Positions 5,414 to 12,882 of a stretch of DNA of 64,000 bases are shown here, piece after piece. Where the stretch lies: the NCBI GenBank assembly GCA_965218435.1, contig CBDCKW010000009.1:1472001-1536000 (forward strand), given 5' to 3'. The notes under the pieces are model-generated. The model saw only the letters and a list, made by a program, of their open reading frames with translations, ran no database searches and was not told where the DNA came from. Made by a program: the position numbers and the translations under genes. Source of the DNA: Truepera sp. Its GTDB lineage: Bacteria; Deinococcota; Deinococci; Deinococcales; Trueperaceae. The first letter of the stretch is position 1. The number at the start of each line of letters is the position of its first letter.

Positions 5414-6367
5414 AAGGTCGAGCCTATAACCGAGGTAACCCGCAAAGATATTCTATTGTTTGCAAATCACCCAAACTCAAGAAGGTAGAACTTGAACAGA
5501 GCAAATGAAGATGTCGCTGCTTAAACCGGCTTTCCGCCCAAGTATTCGCTAAAGCGGAGCAGATACCCGTCCGGGTCTTGCACTAAAAACTCACGGTTGC
5601 CGCTCAGCGTGTCAGCTACCCGGTACCAGTTCTCTTCGGGTAAAACGAAAAGCGGGTGGTTTGCCCCGGCTAAACGTGTCAAGATAGGTTCTAGTTTTTC
5701 GACCTCGATCTGCAAGTTGATACCCCGGCCCAAGGGGGGCTCGAGCCCTCCCGGTGTACCCCAGCCCTGGCCCTCCGCGTACTGGTCGAGCATCAGCTGC
5801 GCGTCGCCGAGTTGAAGGTACGCAAACCGCGTTTCAGGTCGGGAGAAAAGCACTTCAAATCCAAGCAGGTCGGTGTAAAACGCCAGATTCTTATCAATAG
5901 ACTTGTTCCCGAATAGACATCAAGTGAGCCAGAGGTTCCATAAACCTGCTGAGACGACGAGCACATCGTCTTCAAAGTTGTCTCTATGGTTGCGGTAAGG
6001 AGTCGTAAGAATACGAAACCGTTTCATTCCGCCGATAGCGTGCTCGATAAAAACTCTCAACTTGGCTAAGGCACGGTTGTCTTGCTTCTGTTCGGGGCTA
6101 AGGTGCGGGTCAGGCTTCTTTTTGCTTTTGCGCGGTTTCTTGTGGGGAATGCGAATACTGAGACCTTGATAGTCTGTCTGTATCCCTTGATAGCCCAAGT
6201 CGAGTAGTACTTCAGTGTCTGCAAACCAAGCCTTTTCCGAAGGAAACTCTGTTTTAAGCATGGTGTAGTCATGCGTTTTACCCGGGAAAGTCTGACCCAA
6301 GAACAAAATGACCTTGTTCGCTGAGGAGAAAACGGTGTTCTTCAAGGTATGGCGCTTTTTTTACCAC

Positions 6368-6403
6368 GTCTTGGACAAAACGGCACCTCCCGGGCCTGTC
6401 CGC
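6368..6403 (-). repeat. Hairpin micro-element copy A (36 bp)
   Basis: Minus strand GCGGACAGGCCC-GGGAGG-TGCCGTTTTGTCCAAGAC; removal restores transposase HYSG. Confidence 0.9.
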
Positions 6404-6587
6404 TATAGTGTTCACGTTGTTTTTCGTCATCACTTGGACGTTGATAGAGACGCTCAGTTACATCAACTAGCAGATGCTCTAGGTCTACGTTTGCCAGGGT
6501 GATTTTAAGTGCTTCGGCATTAGCAAACGTGCGTTCAGGCAAAACTCCCAAGCTTGCCAAAGTCTTAGACATGATAGGGGTCAGTCT

Positions 6588-6625
6588 GCGGACAGGCCCC
6601 TTTCGGGTGCCGTTTTGTCCAAGAC
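6588..6625 (+). repeat. Hairpin micro-element copy B (38 bp)
   Basis: GCGGACAGGCCC-CTTTCGGG-TGCCGTTTTGTCCAAGAC; removal restores transposase CENVH-RLTPI with no duplication. Confidence 0.9.
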
Positions 6626-7027
6626 ATGGACGTTTTCACAAGCTTTTGAACGCGCCATATCAAAGTGGGTTCCCAGCACATCAAACGTCGGATAATTCTT
6701 GAAGTAGTAAAGCATGAACAACAGCTTTGCCTCGGCACTGGCTAACTTGCCTTTTTGCCCTCCACCCGACCTACGCTGTTTTAGCCCTTGTACATACGCT
6801 TGCTCCTGCTCAGCCTGGTGGATTTTCGCAAACACTTTCGCCAGAACCTTGAACTTCTCGCTTGATAGACCTGTCAGTGCTTTTAATTGTCGCTCGTCTC
6901 GTATCTTCGCTAGCATTTCGCTACTTTAGCAGCTTCTCCTCACTATTAGGGAACTACTCTAATGTCTAGCACCGTGAGTTCAGGAACGAGCGCCGCCCAT
7001 TTCACAGTGACCCAACTAGCCCAGCCT

Positions 7028-7546
7028 TCACGCTTGATACGCCGCTTCGGTTTCAGCCGCGGCCCGCTGCACCGCCTCGGGAAAGTCGGCGGCGATATTT
7101 TCTAACACGCGCTGCGCCGTAAAGTGAATCATTTTAAGGAGCGCCCGTCCGCCCCATTTTTCGGGTTCGGGCAGGTTCAGATGGATAGTGATGTCAAACT
7201 CGTAAGAAACGCGGCTGCCGCTTGGGAGCGGTTGCACTTCGGCGCGTCCGGCAACCTCCGCCCAGCCTAGACGCGGTTCGGAGATGGGCAGTGGGCTCAG
7301 CTCCGCGCCTCTCGTGGTCGGCTGCAAAATGCTCTCAAACATCAGCTCTTGCTGACCGAAAAACGCAGCGTTCACCGGCAAGAGCGCCCGCACGTGTTTG
7401 AGCTGACCGACCTCGAAGACCGCCATATCGCGGATAAAGGCGGCGTAGGCGAGACTCCGCGGCACGTCGCGGACAAAGGTAACCGCCGCCGCCGGGTCGA
7501 GGCTGAGGTCAAAGGTAAAGTGAACCGTGTGAGCAATATCCATCAT
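7028..7546 (-). CDS. DUF3809-like protein (Deinococcus-Thermus conserved hypothetical)
   Basis: SRPBCC-like size; EKWGGRALLKM motif; adjacent to a DUF3248-like gene (recognised from memory). Confidence 0.65.
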   Translation of the reverse strand: MMDIAHTVHFTFDLSLDPAAAVTFVRDVPRSLAYAAFIRDMAVFEVGQLKHVRALLPVNAAFFGQQELMFESILQPTTRGAELSPLPISEPRLGWAEVAGRAEVQPLPSGSRVSYEFDITIHLNLPEPEKWGGRALLKMIHFTAQRVLENIAADFPEAVQRAAAETEAAYQA

Positions 7547-7561
7547 GGTTAATACCTACAG

Positions 7562-7831
7562 CTAGGGACGCGGGCGTGTGCCCACCCATTCCACGCGTAG
7601 TGTACCCGACCGGGCCGCCTCCTCGAGTTCAGCGTCAGAGGCACCCTTAAGGCGCGGCAGCTCAGCAAATAGCGCGGCGCTTTCGGCAAACCCGAGGCGT
7701 ACCGTCACCGGCCCGTTGTCTCCGTGACGACCCACACGCCACAGCAGCTGAGCGGCTAAGGCGTCGAGCTGCTCCGGCGAGAGTCCGTGCGCCGCCAGCA
7801 CTTCGCTCAGTTGTTCTCCTAACGTGCTCAT
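7562..7831 (-). CDS. DUF3248-like small protein
   Basis: LLWRVGR, VTVRLG, LRVEWV motifs; 89 aa. Confidence 0.65.
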   Translation of the reverse strand: MSTLGEQLSEVLAAHGLSPEQLDALAAQLLWRVGRHGDNGPVTVRLGFAESAALFAELPRLKGASDAELEEAARSGTLRVEWVGTRPRP

Positions 7832-7951
7832 CTCGGTCCAATCTCTTTAAGCAACGTGGTGACCTTTTGCCCTGTCTAATCTTTTACCTGCTTTACTTGC
7901 GCGTTACAACGCCGCACCCTACTTTTAGGGCAGTACTTTTTGCCTGCTTTC

Positions 7952-9154
7952 TTAGTAGCGGCCGCTAACCTCGAGCCCGACGAACGTCAGATACCGCGTT
8001 TCCGGCAAACCCAGAACTTCCGGGTGACACGGCGCTGCGCCCCGCTTGACAAGCACCCGCACCTGTCTTCCGGCGTCTTGCGCCGCGCCCGTCAACATCT
8101 CTAAAAACGCCACTTCGGAGATGAAGTGCGAACAGCTCGTGGTAAAGAGCCGCCCGCCGACCCCCAGCAGTTTCAGCGCGTGCAAGTTGAGGTCGCGGTA
8201 GCCGGTCAGCGCCGCCGCCACCTGAGCGCGGCCCTTGGCGAAAGCCGGAGGGTCTAGGACGACCGTCTCAAACAGTGTATCAAACCTGTCACCGGCGGCC
8301 ACGAGACCGCGCAACACGGTAAAAGCGTCGCCACGCACCGTTTTGAGCGTGAGGTTATTTTGAGCGGCGCTACGCTCTAGCTGAGCCAACGCAGGGGCGC
8401 TCGAGTCCACTGCCGTCGTTTCGTCAGCGTGACGGGCGAGCTGCAGCGCAAACCCGCCGTGATACGAAAACACGTCGAGTGCCCGGCCAAAAGCGAACGA
8501 TCCAGCGAGCACGTGATTTTCTCGCTGGTCTAAAAACGCGCCGGTCTTTTGCCCGCTGTAAGGCGCAGCAGTGAGGGTCACGTCGCCTTCGGTAAAGGGG
8601 ACCGTTTCGGGTACCGACCCGGCGAGCACCGTGAGCTGTTGCGGGAGGCCCTCGAGCTTTCTCACCGCGCTGTCGTTGCGGGCCAAGACGCCTTTAGGCG
8701 CGTAGATATCGGTCAAGGTCTGGACGATGACCTCGGTGAACGCCTCGAGTGCAGCCGCGTGTTGTTGCACCACCAAAACGTCGCCGTATTTATCCACCGT
8801 CAAACCCGGCAAACCGTCCGCTTCACTGTGAACGACCCGGAACGCCTCAAACCCCACCGCCGCCCGTACCCGGTACGCCGCCGTTTGCCGGATACGCGCC
8901 GCCATCAGCTCCGGCGTAACATGCGCGTCACCCCGCGCGACAAGCCGAAAGGCCAACTTTGAACGAGGGTTGAAAAAGCCTTCGCCGAGCCTTTCTCCCT
9001 GGGCACTGAAGATAGCAGCCAAACCGGGCGCAACGTCTCGCTGCGCTCCTGCTAAACGCAAGTCACCGGCAAAGACCCACGGATGCCCCGTTGCGAGCCG
9101 CCGTGCTCCTTTTTCTGTCACTGTCAGTGTAGTTATGACCGTTTCGGTAGACAC
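7952..9154 (-). CDS. RlmI-like class I SAM-dependent rRNA m5C methyltransferase
   Basis: GHPWVF (PUA), SEADGLPGL, GQKTGAFLDQREN, DVFSYHGGF, LDPPAF, TSCS. Confidence 0.9.
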   Translation of the reverse strand: MSTETVITTLTVTEKGARRLATGHPWVFAGDLRLAGAQRDVAPGLAAIFSAQGERLGEGFFNPRSKLAFRLVARGDAHVTPELMAARIRQTAAYRVRAAVGFEAFRVVHSEADGLPGLTVDKYGDVLVVQQHAAALEAFTEVIVQTLTDIYAPKGVLARNDSAVRKLEGLPQQLTVLAGSVPETVPFTEGDVTLTAAPYSGQKTGAFLDQRENHVLAGSFAFGRALDVFSYHGGFALQLARHADETTAVDSSAPALAQLERSAAQNNLTLKTVRGDAFTVLRGLVAAGDRFDTLFETVVLDPPAFAKGRAQVAAALTGYRDLNLHALKLLGVGGRLFTTSCSHFISEVAFLEMLTGAAQDAGRQVRVLVKRGAAPCHPEVLGLPETRYLTFVGLEVSGRY

Positions 9155-9377
9155 CGCCGCACCCTAGCACGAACTCGAGCCAAATTTGGACGGGCTACGC
9201 CGAGATTAGTTGCTGCTGAGAGCACCGTGAACGCGCCTTTACACCGTAAGCTTTACGCCCCAAGGTTGCCCTGCTTCACAGAGTTCACAAGCTAAAGAGG
9301 TCAGACTCATAAGGGGTGGGTACAGTTAAAAAGAGAGCTTGGTTTAGCAAACTCGTGCTCACAGATACGGAGTTGAG

Positions 9378-10658
9378 ATGAAGATAAAGCAGTTAGCTTT
9401 GGTCACAGGTCTGAGCGGCGTACTAGGCGTCGGCGCTCTGGGGCTGAGCGGCCTCACGAACGCACAAACCAGTACGCAAGACGCGTCCGGTCTGCTTTCA
9501 TACGAGCAAAATACGATAGACATCGTGAACGAGTACGGGCCGAGCGTCGTTTCGGTCAACGTCACGGCGCAGGTGCAGACGCAAAATACGCAGGTTCCGG
9601 GACAGCTTCAGGATTATTTAGACCAGCTGCCACCGCAGTTACGCGACTTTTTTAATCAGCAGATGCCGCAGCAACAGCCGCCACAACCGCCACAACAGGC
9701 CGAAGGCAGTGGCTTCGTGATTGACAACGACGGCCGACTTATTACCAATTTTCACGTTGTTAAAGACACGTTGCAAAACAACTCGGTTAAATATACGCAG
9801 GGCTCGAGCATTACCGTGACGTTTCCGGGCAGTGAAACCGAGTATCCAGTTAATGTCGTCGGGGTCAATACGCTCTACGACATTGCGCTGATCGAACTTA
9901 AAAATCCTAAAGACTTGCCCCAGAACGTTAAACCCATTCCGATTGCCGATTCGGACAACATCCAGGTCGGTGAAAAAGCTATTGCTATCGGCAACCCCTT
10001 CGGCCTCAACAGCACCGTTTCGTCGGGGATCGTCTCGGCGGTCAGCCGAGACGCGCCGAGCATCGGGCAGGTTGATGTGCCGTATGTGCAGACCGACGCG
10101 GCGATCAACCCCGGCAACTCGGGCGGCCCGCTACTCAACTCAGACGGTGAAGTCATCGGCATCAACACCCAGATTTTGGCCGGTGGGGGCGGTCTTGGTG
10201 GGCAAGCAGGCAATATCGGGATCGGTTTTGCGGTGCCGAGTAATCTGTTACAACAAAGTTTGGCCCAGCTCGAGCAAGGCGGCATAGTCAGCCTCGATAC
10301 CAAACCCCGTTTGGGTATCGTGATCGGCACTGTGTCGGATTATCCTGAAAGCGTCCGTAATAATCTCAATCTGCCGAACCAGGGTATCGTCGTGCAAGAG
10401 GTGCAACCAGGGAGCGCCGCAGCGCGTGCCGGGATTAAAGGCTCTGACTTCCAAGTTATGTACCAGGGTCAACCGATTCCTGCAGGTGGCGACGTCATCA
10501 CCGCCATTGACGGCAAACCGGTGACCACGACCGCCGAACTGCAAAACGACATCTTGAGCCGTAACAAAGGCGATACGGTCACCTTGACCATCGTCCGTGG
10601 CGGCAAGGAGCAGCAGGTCAAGGTCACACTCGCGCAGGTGCCGCAGCAACGGAACTAG
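9378..10658 (+). CDS. HtrA/DegP-like S1C serine protease with PDZ domain
   Basis: Signal peptide, GSGF, TNFHV, QTDAAINPGNSGGPL, C-terminal PDZ. Confidence 0.95.
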   Translation: MKIKQLALVTGLSGVLGVGALGLSGLTNAQTSTQDASGLLSYEQNTIDIVNEYGPSVVSVNVTAQVQTQNTQVPGQLQDYLDQLPPQLRDFFNQQMPQQQPPQPPQQAEGSGFVIDNDGRLITNFHVVKDTLQNNSVKYTQGSSITVTFPGSETEYPVNVVGVNTLYDIALIELKNPKDLPQNVKPIPIADSDNIQVGEKAIAIGNPFGLNSTVSSGIVSAVSRDAPSIGQVDVPYVQTDAAINPGNSGGPLLNSDGEVIGINTQILAGGGGLGGQAGNIGIGFAVPSNLLQQSLAQLEQGGIVSLDTKPRLGIVIGTVSDYPESVRNNLNLPNQGIVVQEVQPGSAAARAGIKGSDFQVMYQGQPIPAGGDVITAIDGKPVTTTAELQNDILSRNKGDTVTLTIVRGGKEQQVKVTLAQVPQQRN

Positions 10659-10689
10659 AGTCATTAGATCCGGCTACACGTTTCAGGAG

Positions 10690-10710
10690 GGGTGCATCAC
10701 GCACCCTTTC
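10690..10710 (+). terminator. Probable intrinsic terminator after htrA
   Basis: GGGTGC-ATCAC-GCACCC followed by TTT. Confidence 0.5.
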
Positions 10711-11295
10711 GATATTCGGGCTCAATCTCTTGTGCTTGAGCAGATGCTAGGCTCTGTTGAAATGTGCTCTTGTTATTCTACACAAAAGTGCTTTGTCTTA
10801 TCACAGATAGTACCTAAAGGCAAACCCTAGACCGGGTTGGACCAGGGCAACCGCAAAGTCGGCAACGTAGAGTTGGTGGATGACAGAACGAGACTTACCT
10901 GAACTGATCAAGCACTTTGCCAACTTACCCGACCCGCGTGATCGCCGTGGGATTCGGCATGAGCTAGTAGACATTGTGTGCATCAGCATTTTGGCGGTTA
11001 TCTGCGGGGCGAACACGTATAGCCAGATACATCAGTACGCCTTAGCACACGAGACGTGGTTGCGTAGCTTTCTAAAGTTACCTTCTGGGATACCGAGTCA
11101 AGCCACGTTTGAGCGGGTGTTTGCAGTGCTGAGTCCAGACGCTTGGCAGTCGCGTTTTTTGTCTTGAACCCAGACGCTGGTGCTACCGGCGTTGGCTGAA
11201 GGAGAGGATGAGGTGCTGGCGCTTGACGGCAAGAGTGCTAGAGGCTCTGCTGGCAAAGAAGGGGCACTGCACACGGTAAGTGTATGGTCGAGTCA

Positions 11296-11346
11296 GCGGA
11301 CAGGCCCGGTGGAGGCGCAAGCCGAACATGCCGTTTTGTCCAAGAC
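11296..11346 (+). repeat. Hairpin micro-element copy C (51 bp)
   Basis: GCGGACAGGCCC-GGTGGAGGCGCAAGCCGAACA-TGCCGTTTTGTCCAAGAC; removal restores WSSQ-LEVVLAQ. Confidence 0.9.
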
Positions 11347-11501
11347 GCTTGAGGTTGTCTTAGCCCAACAGCAGGTGCCGGAGAAGACAAACGAGATCAC
11401 CGTCATCCCCGAACTGTTGGAAGTTGTCAACCCCGCCGGGGCGGTTGTCACCACAGACGCTATGGGAACACAAGCAGGTGGCGTGGACGGTTCGAGAGCA
11501 T

Positions 11502-11539
11502 CTAGTACGGGCAAAGCCCGGCCCTCGTGGGCCTAGTAC
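11502..11539. repeat. Second micro-insert: 24-bp double hairpin flanked by CTAGTAC direct repeats
   Basis: CTAGTAC-GGGCAAAGCCCGGCCCTCGTGGGC-CTAGTAC; removing 31 bp restores EHLVHYLLALKDN. Confidence 0.8.
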
Positions 11540-12036
11540 ATTACTTGCTGGCGCTCAAGGACAACCACCCCACGCTGTTTGAAGATGTCAAGGGCTTCTT
11601 CGGCTACGCCGATAAAGTCAACTGGGAGCTTGAACATAGCCACACCCAAACGACTGAGCAGGGGCATGGACGCAGTGAAACACGCGAATGCCGGGTGTTG
11701 GCGGTTCCCGAGTGGCTGCATGAACGTGAGAGCTGGCGCGACTTGACCAGCATCGTGCGCGTCTACGCAAGCCGTACAGTCGGCAACCACACAACCGCGC
11801 ACAGCCGTTACTTCATCACCAGCTTGCCACTCGATGCCGAGCGTATTCTCCGAACGGTACGCTTTCACTGGGGTATCGAAAACGGCCTACATTGGGTGTT
11901 GGATGTGGCTTTTGACGAAGACCGCCCGCGCACACGTCTCAAAAACGCCCAAGCGACCTGGGTCGCGCTTAGACATCTCGCCATGAACCTGCTGAAACGA
12001 AACAAAACCATCAAGGCAGGTGTCGAAGCCAAACGC

Positions 12037-12882
12037 TTACGCGCAGGCTGGGACCGCGACTACCTCCTTAAACTCCTCGCTTCCTGACTTTGCGGTGGCC
12101 CTGGCTTTTCTGGCAACCAACGAATAGCTGAGGGGCGGTTTGTGTTCATAGTCCTGAAACGCTCTGTAGTTATTGGAGAGGTCGTGGCCGTATTCGGCAA
12201 AATGGGTCAGGGTAAAGTTTGACGCTAGGCACAGACCAACGATGCTCGAGAGCGTGTGTTGAAACCAGTACGACTGCGCACGCCCGGTTTGAGCCGGGTC
12301 CATGTAGTCAGGCAGAGCTTCCTCAACAAAAGGCTCCTGCCGAAAATACGAACTGTCAATCTCGAGGCTAGTAGGGTCAAACATGCCCAGGATGGGGTGT
12401 TGGTCGTACAGAAAGAGATAACCACCGGGACGAAGCAGCCGCTCGATAACGCCAAAAAAAGCGGGCAGGTCAGGTAACCAGCCGAGTACGCCGACCGTGA
12501 GGTAAACGATATCAAACGCAGCGGTGTAGGTCTCGTCTATATCGTAGACGCTGGTACAGACAAATTCAACATTTTGCCCGCTGGCTTTGGAGAGCTCTTT
12601 ACCCTGCTCGAGAAAGTTCTCGGACATATCAAACCCGACGCAGCGCCTCGCCCCTGCCTTTTTAACGCTAATCAGTTCACGCCCATTGTTGCAACCGAGT
12701 TGGGCGACGTCTTTGTCTGCTAAGCCGATCTCTGCAGACAGCTGACGCTCGACCTTATCAAAGGTTGTAAAGTCGGGTTGGCTGATTTTCGCTAAAAATT
12801 CAGCAAAACCTTCGTCACGGTAAATATCCGCCGTTCGGTTCCACATGTCGTGATTAGCCTTGATATATTTGTCGTTTTCCAC
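12037..12882 (-). CDS. Class I SAM-dependent methyltransferase (C-terminus runs into the ISAs1 end)
   Basis: QLGCNNGRE motif I, FDIVY..GVLGWLPDL, LRPGG. Confidence 0.85.
   Translation of the reverse strand: MENDKYIKANHDMWNRTADIYRDEGFAEFLAKISQPDFTTFDKVERQLSAEIGLADKDVAQLGCNNGRELISVKKAGARRCVGFDMSENFLEQGKELSKASGQNVEFVCTSVYDIDETYTAAFDIVYLTVGVLGWLPDLPAFFGVIERLLRPGGYLFLYDQHPILGMFDPTSLEIDSSYFRQEPFVEEALPDYMDPAQTGRAQSYWFQHTLSSIVGLCLASNFTLTHFAEYGHDLSNNYRAFQDYEHKPPLSYSLVARKARATAKSGSEEFKEVVAVPACA

Follow-up and report, generated by a model that had tools for sequence, protein, structure and literature searches.

Two transposase genes in a 64,000-nucleotide stretch of a Truepera sp. genome (GenBank contig CBDCKW010000009.1, positions 1,472,001 to 1,536,000; "the window") are interrupted by three copies of a small hairpin element. 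The family to which these copies belong is mobile and constrained in structure, and it re-uses exact hot spots in insertion sequences (ISs), in small repeats and in itself. Its insertion is strand-polar, occurs 5′ of a purine (usually after A or G), makes no duplication and adds either no base or one purine. The evidence supports well its status as an orphan micro-element of an already known class.

Copies in the window

Copies A (6368–6403, minus strand, 36 nt) and B (6588–6625, plus strand, 38 nt) both lie in an IS5-group element at 5898–6961 on the minus strand, which has imperfect 19-bp terminal inverted repeats, and copy C (11296–11346, plus strand) is a 51-nt variant with an extended apical domain in an ISAs1-family element at 10843–12102 on the plus strand. 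Copy A, whose apical loop is GGGA, is sense to the transposase gene and in frame, at the site TATA|GTGG; copy B is antisense and frameshifting, at GTCT|ATGG; and copy C is sense and in frame, at GTCA|GCTT. These coordinates, strands, arms and variable centres (6, 8 and 21 nt) all agree with an initial annotation of the window, as do the two insert orientations and the two host families, which Pfam matches identify as the IS5 group (DDE_Tnp_4 and HTH_Tnp_4) and ISAs1 (DDE_Tnp_1_assoc). The two-arm pattern has three matches in the window and none in 100 shuffles. Direct reading of the window sequence bears out the claim that removing each copy restores the transposase frame. The ISAs1 gene that hosts copy C is broken, by a stop at 11165–11167 and by further shifts.

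Comparison with uninterrupted ISs, which the annotation had proposed, gave empty alleles for copies B and C. Copy B is polymorphic: the same IS occurs without it in two other metagenomes, and contigs of runs X5 and X6 (two of the four runs compared, at contig level rather than in raw reads) skip exactly 6588–6625, 38 bases. This copy was said to set the boundaries of the element with no target duplication, and it does so; the refinement is that many insertions bear one extra purine at the 3′ end. A diverged ISAs1 element (81%) aligns without a gap across the empty copy C site, and the 51-nt variant itself occurs at other sites in two genomes (G360 and G361). For copy A, searches for related sequences gave no empty allele; since a related IS (run X5, record 18) has copy A and lacks copy B, copy A is the older insertion.

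The host ISs keep moving with the element inside them. In the genome that holds the window (G000), the IS5-group host has a letter-identical second copy at C9:1107342, and the ISAs1 host has an identical 1260-base copy ending at C9:934345 on the minus strand, each with different flanks. These paired copies, together with the occurrence of the family in 54 genomes, count against an assembly artefact, at the level of contigs and not of raw reads. The two ISAs1 copies (window 10843–12102 and C9:933086–934345) face opposite ways and their 10-base flanks are exchanged, a sign that the intervening DNA, about 550 kb, was probably inverted. The ISAs1 gene also holds another small repeat, at 11502–11538 and flanked by CTAG, that is absent from one relative; the genome has six related copies of it, five of them in or adjoining IS remnants.

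Structure and distribution of the element

The element is a single bulged hairpin, in which a 5′ GC precedes a 5-bp stem, a 3-bp stem and a stem of two or more base pairs with a free loop, and which also has a bulged T, a 4–6-nt bulge starting with G, and a 3′ tail, AAGAC. Its ends (GCG...CAAGAC) are fixed, and the central GC/TG and the bulged T are likewise invariant in the alignment, an invariance partly imposed by what the search required. We compared 103 distinct copies of 35–39 nt. Among 1030 cells, 98.4% were paired, and 7 of the 10 pairs had changed on both sides, giving 103 two-sided changes, a score reached in 0 of 500 shuffles (slid controls were 28–50% paired); related copies are not independent, and the collection filter favored paired copies. 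Without the pairing filter, the 194 distinct core copies of this length gave 898 Watson-Crick, 32 G-T, 14 A-C and 26 other cells, so that G-T pairs outnumber A-C pairs on the top strand by 32 to 14 (P = 0.011). Predicted folds of copies A, B and C reproduce the arm and centre pairings first claimed for them, and the structure is backed by this covariation rather than by the stability of single copies, which is unremarkable (z = −1.45, −1.99 and +0.41).

Variants reach 54 nt. A sister variant ends in AAGAA or AAGAG, and the 3′ ends seen overall are AAGAC, AAGAA, AAGAG and AAGAT; the 5′ end is exact. The range of 35–54 nt and the precise ends support the earlier description of a tiny non-autonomous mobile unit that is recognised by its structure and tolerates variation in its apical loop. 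Rfam gave three chance-level matches in the window, none of them at copies A, B or C. Other modules of similar build with different ends (starting GAGGAGTGGC) are found in the same repeats at four loci (L141, L151, L152 and L156).

The family belongs to bacteria of the Deinococcus group. An exact scan of 185,579 species genomes gave 26 loci, all 26 of them titled Deinococcota, and a relaxed pattern had matches in 54 of the phylum's 364 genomes, including G000 (a reversed control had no matches). By group, with G000 excluded, the relaxed pattern matched 3 of 127 genomes in f1, 48 of 125 in f2, 2 of 19 in f3 and none in f4–f6. A covariance-model scan of 40 genomes, which scored only 150 candidates in each, detected diverged copies in eight of them; these include 4 of the 6 genomes from f3, and none of the 13 from f4 and f5. 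The distribution across genomes is patchy, and includes named, cultured Deinococcus species, four Deinococcus plasmid records and at least 143 metagenome loci; phage records and viral contigs gave no match.

Hosts, hot spots and target sites

G000 contains 14 outer copies of the element, three of which have a second element nested in the loop; one copy is chimeric and one is shortened to 25 bases. They reduce to 10 independent sites, because the IS5-group and ISAs1 hosts are duplicated and one insertion is common to two IS630 copies. Eight of the 10 are in transposase genes (three IS5-group, two IS630, and one each of IS3, ISAs1 and IS1), an assignment in which IS1 is weak by Pfam and several blastx seeds were drawn from these same ISs. 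Of the other two sites, one adjoins an IS4-type match that is weak (E = 0.003 against a small library) and the other is unassigned; an IS110 origin for the site at C9:2724594, guessed by eye, was not supported. At least 2.3% of the genome is IS-like DNA and about 17% is other non-coding DNA, by a crude gene count. The enrichment in ISs is real: its significance is P = 1 x 10−6 at this ratio, and P = 0.01 if ISs make up 40% of neutral DNA.

The annotation had placed the element in transposase genes only, and beyond G000 this exclusivity does not hold. We assembled 116 target sites, which fall into 69 clusters after removal of nested, tandem and short-flank cases. Of these clusters, 28 are in transposases (21 by blastx and 7 more by Pfam), the host ISs spanning IS1, IS3, IS4, IS5, IS200, IS630, IS982, ISAs1 and Tn3, and one lies in frame in ispD. 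The hosts of the other clusters are, by eye, partly small repeats; a terminal-repeat test of the non-IS hosts was positive in 2 of 41 clusters, and that these hosts are miniature inverted-repeat transposable elements (MITEs) is a judgement by eye only. In genome G124, at 13 loci not picked for IS content, four copies are clearly inside transposase genes, two are near one and two are beside tRNA genes (by eye); at L187 and L193 in that genome arrays of the element adjoin tRNA genes, one abutting the tRNA end (by eye). Most copies in element-rich genomes are in small repeats or in each other, and in the metagenome contigs listed the element occurs in short tandem repeats and nests several deep.

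Exact sites are used again and again. At one base of IS3 orfA, nine ISs with 55–91% flank identity carry a near-identical 38-mer, the elements differing at a few positions. At a second IS3 site, six filled copies are scattered in a tree of 30 related ISs built with the element removed (two duplicate loci excluded, and one filled row on a long branch); the best tree has four changes, and well-supported branches force at least three independent ones. Three further rows hold the 40-nt sister variant at the same base. The IS630, IS1 and IS3-integrase sites of G000 also recur in other genomes and families, with other variants. In the IS3 orfA loci L199–L226, the coding sequence at the hot spot folds into a conserved 9–11-bp hairpin whose 4-base loop varies, and the element's 3′ arm is similar to part of this hairpin.

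Many inserts shift the host frame, for example copy B and those at IS3 sites. At the IS3 orfA end, 11 of 11 distinct ISs carry the element plus one purine, a total of 39 bases, in frame, about 9 bases after an A-AAA-AAG motif that is present in most rows and that we take to be a slippery motif. With a 52% chance of the extra base, this result has P = 0.0008 if the 11 are independent and P = 0.04 for five origins. In genome G030, five IS3 copies that are 99.9–100% alike have the element in frame, with an open orfA and a 307-codon orfB frame. The in-frame bias and these open copies together indicate that selection filters the hits and that the element can ride in active ISs. A 39-base variant also lies in frame inside an IS200-type Y1 transposase gene (L177:1462–1500), which is itself truncated by an IS3. 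General inactivation of transposons, one of the functions proposed in the annotation, is contradicted by the duplication of both window hosts after insertion and by the multiplied, open-frame IS3 of G030.

The target is defined by purines. The first base after the insert (+1) is a purine in 67 of the 69 clusters and the base before it (−1) in 55, position +4 is G in 62% (background 27%), and GCG occurs at +1 or +2 in 18 clusters, compared with 7.5% of control R|R steps (R, purine; P = 2.5 x 10−6). The commonest nested site, G|GTGC, whose uninterrupted form is available because such a host is itself a copy of the element, received 28 exact inserts, 27 with an added A and 3 with an added G; as the base before this site is G or C, the extra A is not a duplicated target base. 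None of the 111 nested or tandem events includes an inverted nested copy. The ends of the element are asymmetric, without the terminal inverted repeats of MITEs, and the extra base is no copy of the target. The occurrence of both orientations in mRNAs argues against splicing. In G000, the sequence at C5:235199–235273 (L173) is an IS630 chimera, with the left flank of one IS630 type and a right flank equal to the copy at C9:1440671, and the switch is at or just after the nested element; shared inserts may thus seed recombination between IS types.

Mechanism of insertion and relation to known repeats

We give about even chances to a mechanism in which a hairpin-binding nuclease, cutting 5′ of purines, excises and joins a single strand. 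A trans-acting strand-transfer nuclease would bind the folded top strand as single-stranded DNA, cut it at two points that both lie 5′ of a purine, 2 nt before and 5–6 nt after the hairpin foot, and insert the cut strand at an R|R step of a second single strand. The probable intermediate would be a small circle whose joint is the tandem joint AAGAC|GCG, and the extra A would be the base next to the donor copy, carried along when the cut on the right shifts by one place to an A|R step. Mobility (empty alleles and scattered gains in IS3), target choice (the purine rule and the GCG excess), polarity (no inverted copies, and the G-T excess on the top strand) and an extra purine that is not a duplicated target base all argue for this mechanism. 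Y1 enzymes, according to the accessible part of one source (PMC6006769), recognise imperfect single-strand hairpins and cut beside them. The bias towards ISs would have three sources, namely hot spots that mimic the element, selection against hits in host genes, and the copying and transfer of loaded ISs. Of the two options in the initial annotation, that the element targets transposons or that it persists where selection is absent, each would then be right in part, and hitchhiking on still-mobile ISs is needed as a third factor.

Several results weigh against strand transfer of this kind. No circle or excision product was observed, and no enzyme gene is linked to the element. One insert ends in AAGAG before a C, an exception to the purine rule. 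Empty sites are no more prone to fold than control R|R sites (P = 0.57), and on these grounds we rejected the idea that hairpin loops are generally targeted. A guide tetranucleotide sets the cuts of Y1 enzymes exactly, whereas this element has a loose target consensus and a variable 3′ end; the added purines also fit untemplated addition by a polymerase. Y1_Tnp is present in 23 of 48 element-positive and 25 of 77 negative genomes (P = 0.09), a comparison blunted, like the others of this kind, because "negative" was defined by a pattern that misses diverged copies (some were found in G032, G115, G119 and G125), and it was not found in G124, G106, G030 or G025.

The mover is not a genome-resident Y1 transposase in all carriers. 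Among 10 Y1 loci scanned of 26 Y1 matches, no Y1 gene is flanked by the element, and the only strong covariance-model match near them lies inside the IS200 gene. G124, which is 95% complete and has 81 arm matches, gave no Y1, reverse transcriptase (RT), IS110 or DUF559 match. RVT_1 is present in 10 of 48 positive genomes and 9 of 77 negative ones (P = 0.20), and searches of G053, G116, G106 and G124 did not find it; G000 has seven RT matches. Neither a co-occurring RT nor, by Rfam, an intron-like RNA domain was found that would indicate a retroelement or group II intron origin. Searches for the suggested parent, in which the motif would flank an HUH, RT or recombinase gene, were unsuccessful: neither orphan 5′ arms nor a scan of G000 by structure alone turned up anything convincing, a covariance-model search returned only 13 already known copies, and the open reading frame families that recur near copies are transposases or housekeeping genes only. 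Outward-facing pairs in G124, considered as parent ends, are explained by a pair of hot spots within a single IS5-group element. At G000:C9:2184669–2184700, upstream of a small GIY-YIG gene, a perfect hairpin of 32 bases has both ends of the element; it was set aside because it is absent at three orthologous loci and scores only 12.6 bits.

Other candidate movers were rejected: standalone GIY-YIG (only a UvrC-sized match in eight carriers), DUF559 (none in G000, G124, G360 or G361), IS110 (9 of 13 positive and 5 of 12 negative genomes), PDDEXK_3 (1 of 25 genomes) and Cas1 (5 of 13 positive and 5 of 12 negative). The IS91-type Y2 transposase was found in 0 of 25 genomes, by a search that gave no match in any control genome either. 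None of Y1, RT, IS110, Cas1 and DUF559 is present in every element-rich genome; absence of an enzyme today is compatible with a past or visiting one. We suggest only tentatively that these are single-hairpin parasites of transposons whose mover is a strand-transfer enzyme outside Y1 HUH, RT, IS110 and Cas1, choosing sites that mimic parts of the element. Orphan hairpins of other phyla, such as the small dispersed repeats (SDRs) of cyanobacteria and the CGTC-tagged repetitive extragenic palindromic sequences (REPs), may share this route.

Copying through RNA or a polymerase, reportedly the route proposed for cyanobacterial SDRs, is a less probable explanation. A processed hairpin transcript would be copied onto a nicked or broken target, and an untemplated purine would account for both the +1 rule and the added A or G. 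Every one of the 30 bases added at the commonest nested site is a purine, with A far ahead of G, and the exact 5′ end, the variable 3′ end, the G-T wobble bias and the RT matches of G000 also fit. The distribution of RVT_1 does not, the element has no Rfam match, and the 5′-truncated copies typical of retro-copying are not evident.

Somewhat less likely again is that there is no real targeting, insertion at R|R steps being near-random and the IS bias reflecting purifying selection plus arrival inside transferred ISs. The modest share of transposase hits among the G124 loci (4 of 13), the in-frame match in ispD, the element's presence in identical IS copies and the kept frame in all 11 ISs at the IS3 orfA end (a sign of filtering) are consistent with it. 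They have to be set against the repeated use of the same base, by different variants, in ISs 55–60% alike, and against frameshifting hits that recur at fixed sites. Moreover, none of the 10 G000 sites is in an intact gene and no more than two lie outside ISs, even though the genome has several times more non-IS non-coding DNA than IS-like DNA (17% and 2.3%, by the crude count).

We consider it improbable that the element is an ordinary REP family whose RAYT-type transposase was lost or visits on mobile DNA. The minus strand plus one target base reads CGTC or TGTC, the tag of the CGTC REPs, which are also without a known transposase in the accessible text of PMC3733652; but the first base of the tag belongs to the target, the stem, tail and arrangement are unlike those of CGTC families, head-to-head dimers are lacking, and none of the 10 Y1 loci examined has a motif-flanked Y1 gene. 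A brake on transposons, maintained by the host to disable incoming ISs, would fit the many frame-shifting hits and the wide range of IS families, but is very doubtful given that loaded ISs still move, some multiplying with open frames, that the distribution is patchy, and that element-rich genomes carry the majority of their copies in small repeats or within other copies.

The closest parallel in behavior is with the SDRs of Nostocaceae, which Elhai et al. (2008, Genome Res 18:1484) reportedly described as 21–27 nt long, conserved in structure by compensatory changes, precisely inserted and nested. SDRs share with the element a very small size, lack of coding capacity, covarying structure and precise insertion; nesting in one another as well as in minitransposons and short tandem repeats; and lack of a known mover. 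The element is longer (a 35–39-nt core, up to 54) and, by description rather than sequence, is set apart by its hot spots in IS coding sequence, its purine rule and its addition of no base or one purine. SDRs are confined to Nostocaceae, according to the accessible part of PMC5861425, whereas all named exact hits of the element are in Deinococcota.

CGTC-tagged REPs, in the accessible text of Di Nocera et al. 2013 (PMC3733652), are 20–40-nt hairpins with an unpaired YGTC end, intragenic copies and no dedicated transposase; their 8–9-bp stem begins with A-T pairs, they have a CCA tail, and head-to-head dimers predominate. That text does not mention Deinococcus. The element resembles them in hairpin size, intragenic copies and the lack of a linked transposase gene. 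It differs in its 5+3+2-bp bulged stem, closed by an invariant G-C, in its two-base tail without CCA, and in being tandem and nested in one orientation; its minus strand reads Y-GTCTT, but empty alleles place the Y in target DNA. GTAG REPs, REPINs and their RAYTs, and IS200/IS605 elements, share an imperfect single-strand hairpin as the unit and no target duplication (accessible parts of PMC6006769 and PMC3116915), whereas the element has no GTAG/GTRG tag at its foot, no doublet and no linked Y1 gene, and has a loose target and one base of slack at the 3′ end. The small non-coding repeats (SNRs) of Deinococcus radiodurans, mosaics of 60–215 bp in the accessible parts of PMC11276467 and PMC1978522, come from the same bacterial group; many hosts of the element are such modular repeats (by eye), and mosaics would arise by nesting. 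Every SNR in those descriptions is longer than the element. The element behaves like SDRs and resembles CGTC REPs, and it lacks defining features of SDRs, CGTC REPs, GTAG REPs and MITEs. We found no description of the family in the literature searched, which did not extend to subscription journals, supplements, a 1999 paper on Deinococcus repeats or the SDR paper.

The element bears on the question of what moves the smallest bacterial mobile elements, such as SDRs and CGTC REPs. Hundreds of copies are available, along with exact empty alleles and a defined fold and hot spots, and cultured Deinococcus species are among the hosts, so that the mover of this element can be hunted by genetics and pull-down. 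An enzyme capable of precise, duplication-free single-strand insertion that tolerates cargo in the loop would be a useful tool. Other mobile elements are the habitat of this one, which disrupts some of them, travels unbroken inside others, and may seed recombination between IS copies.

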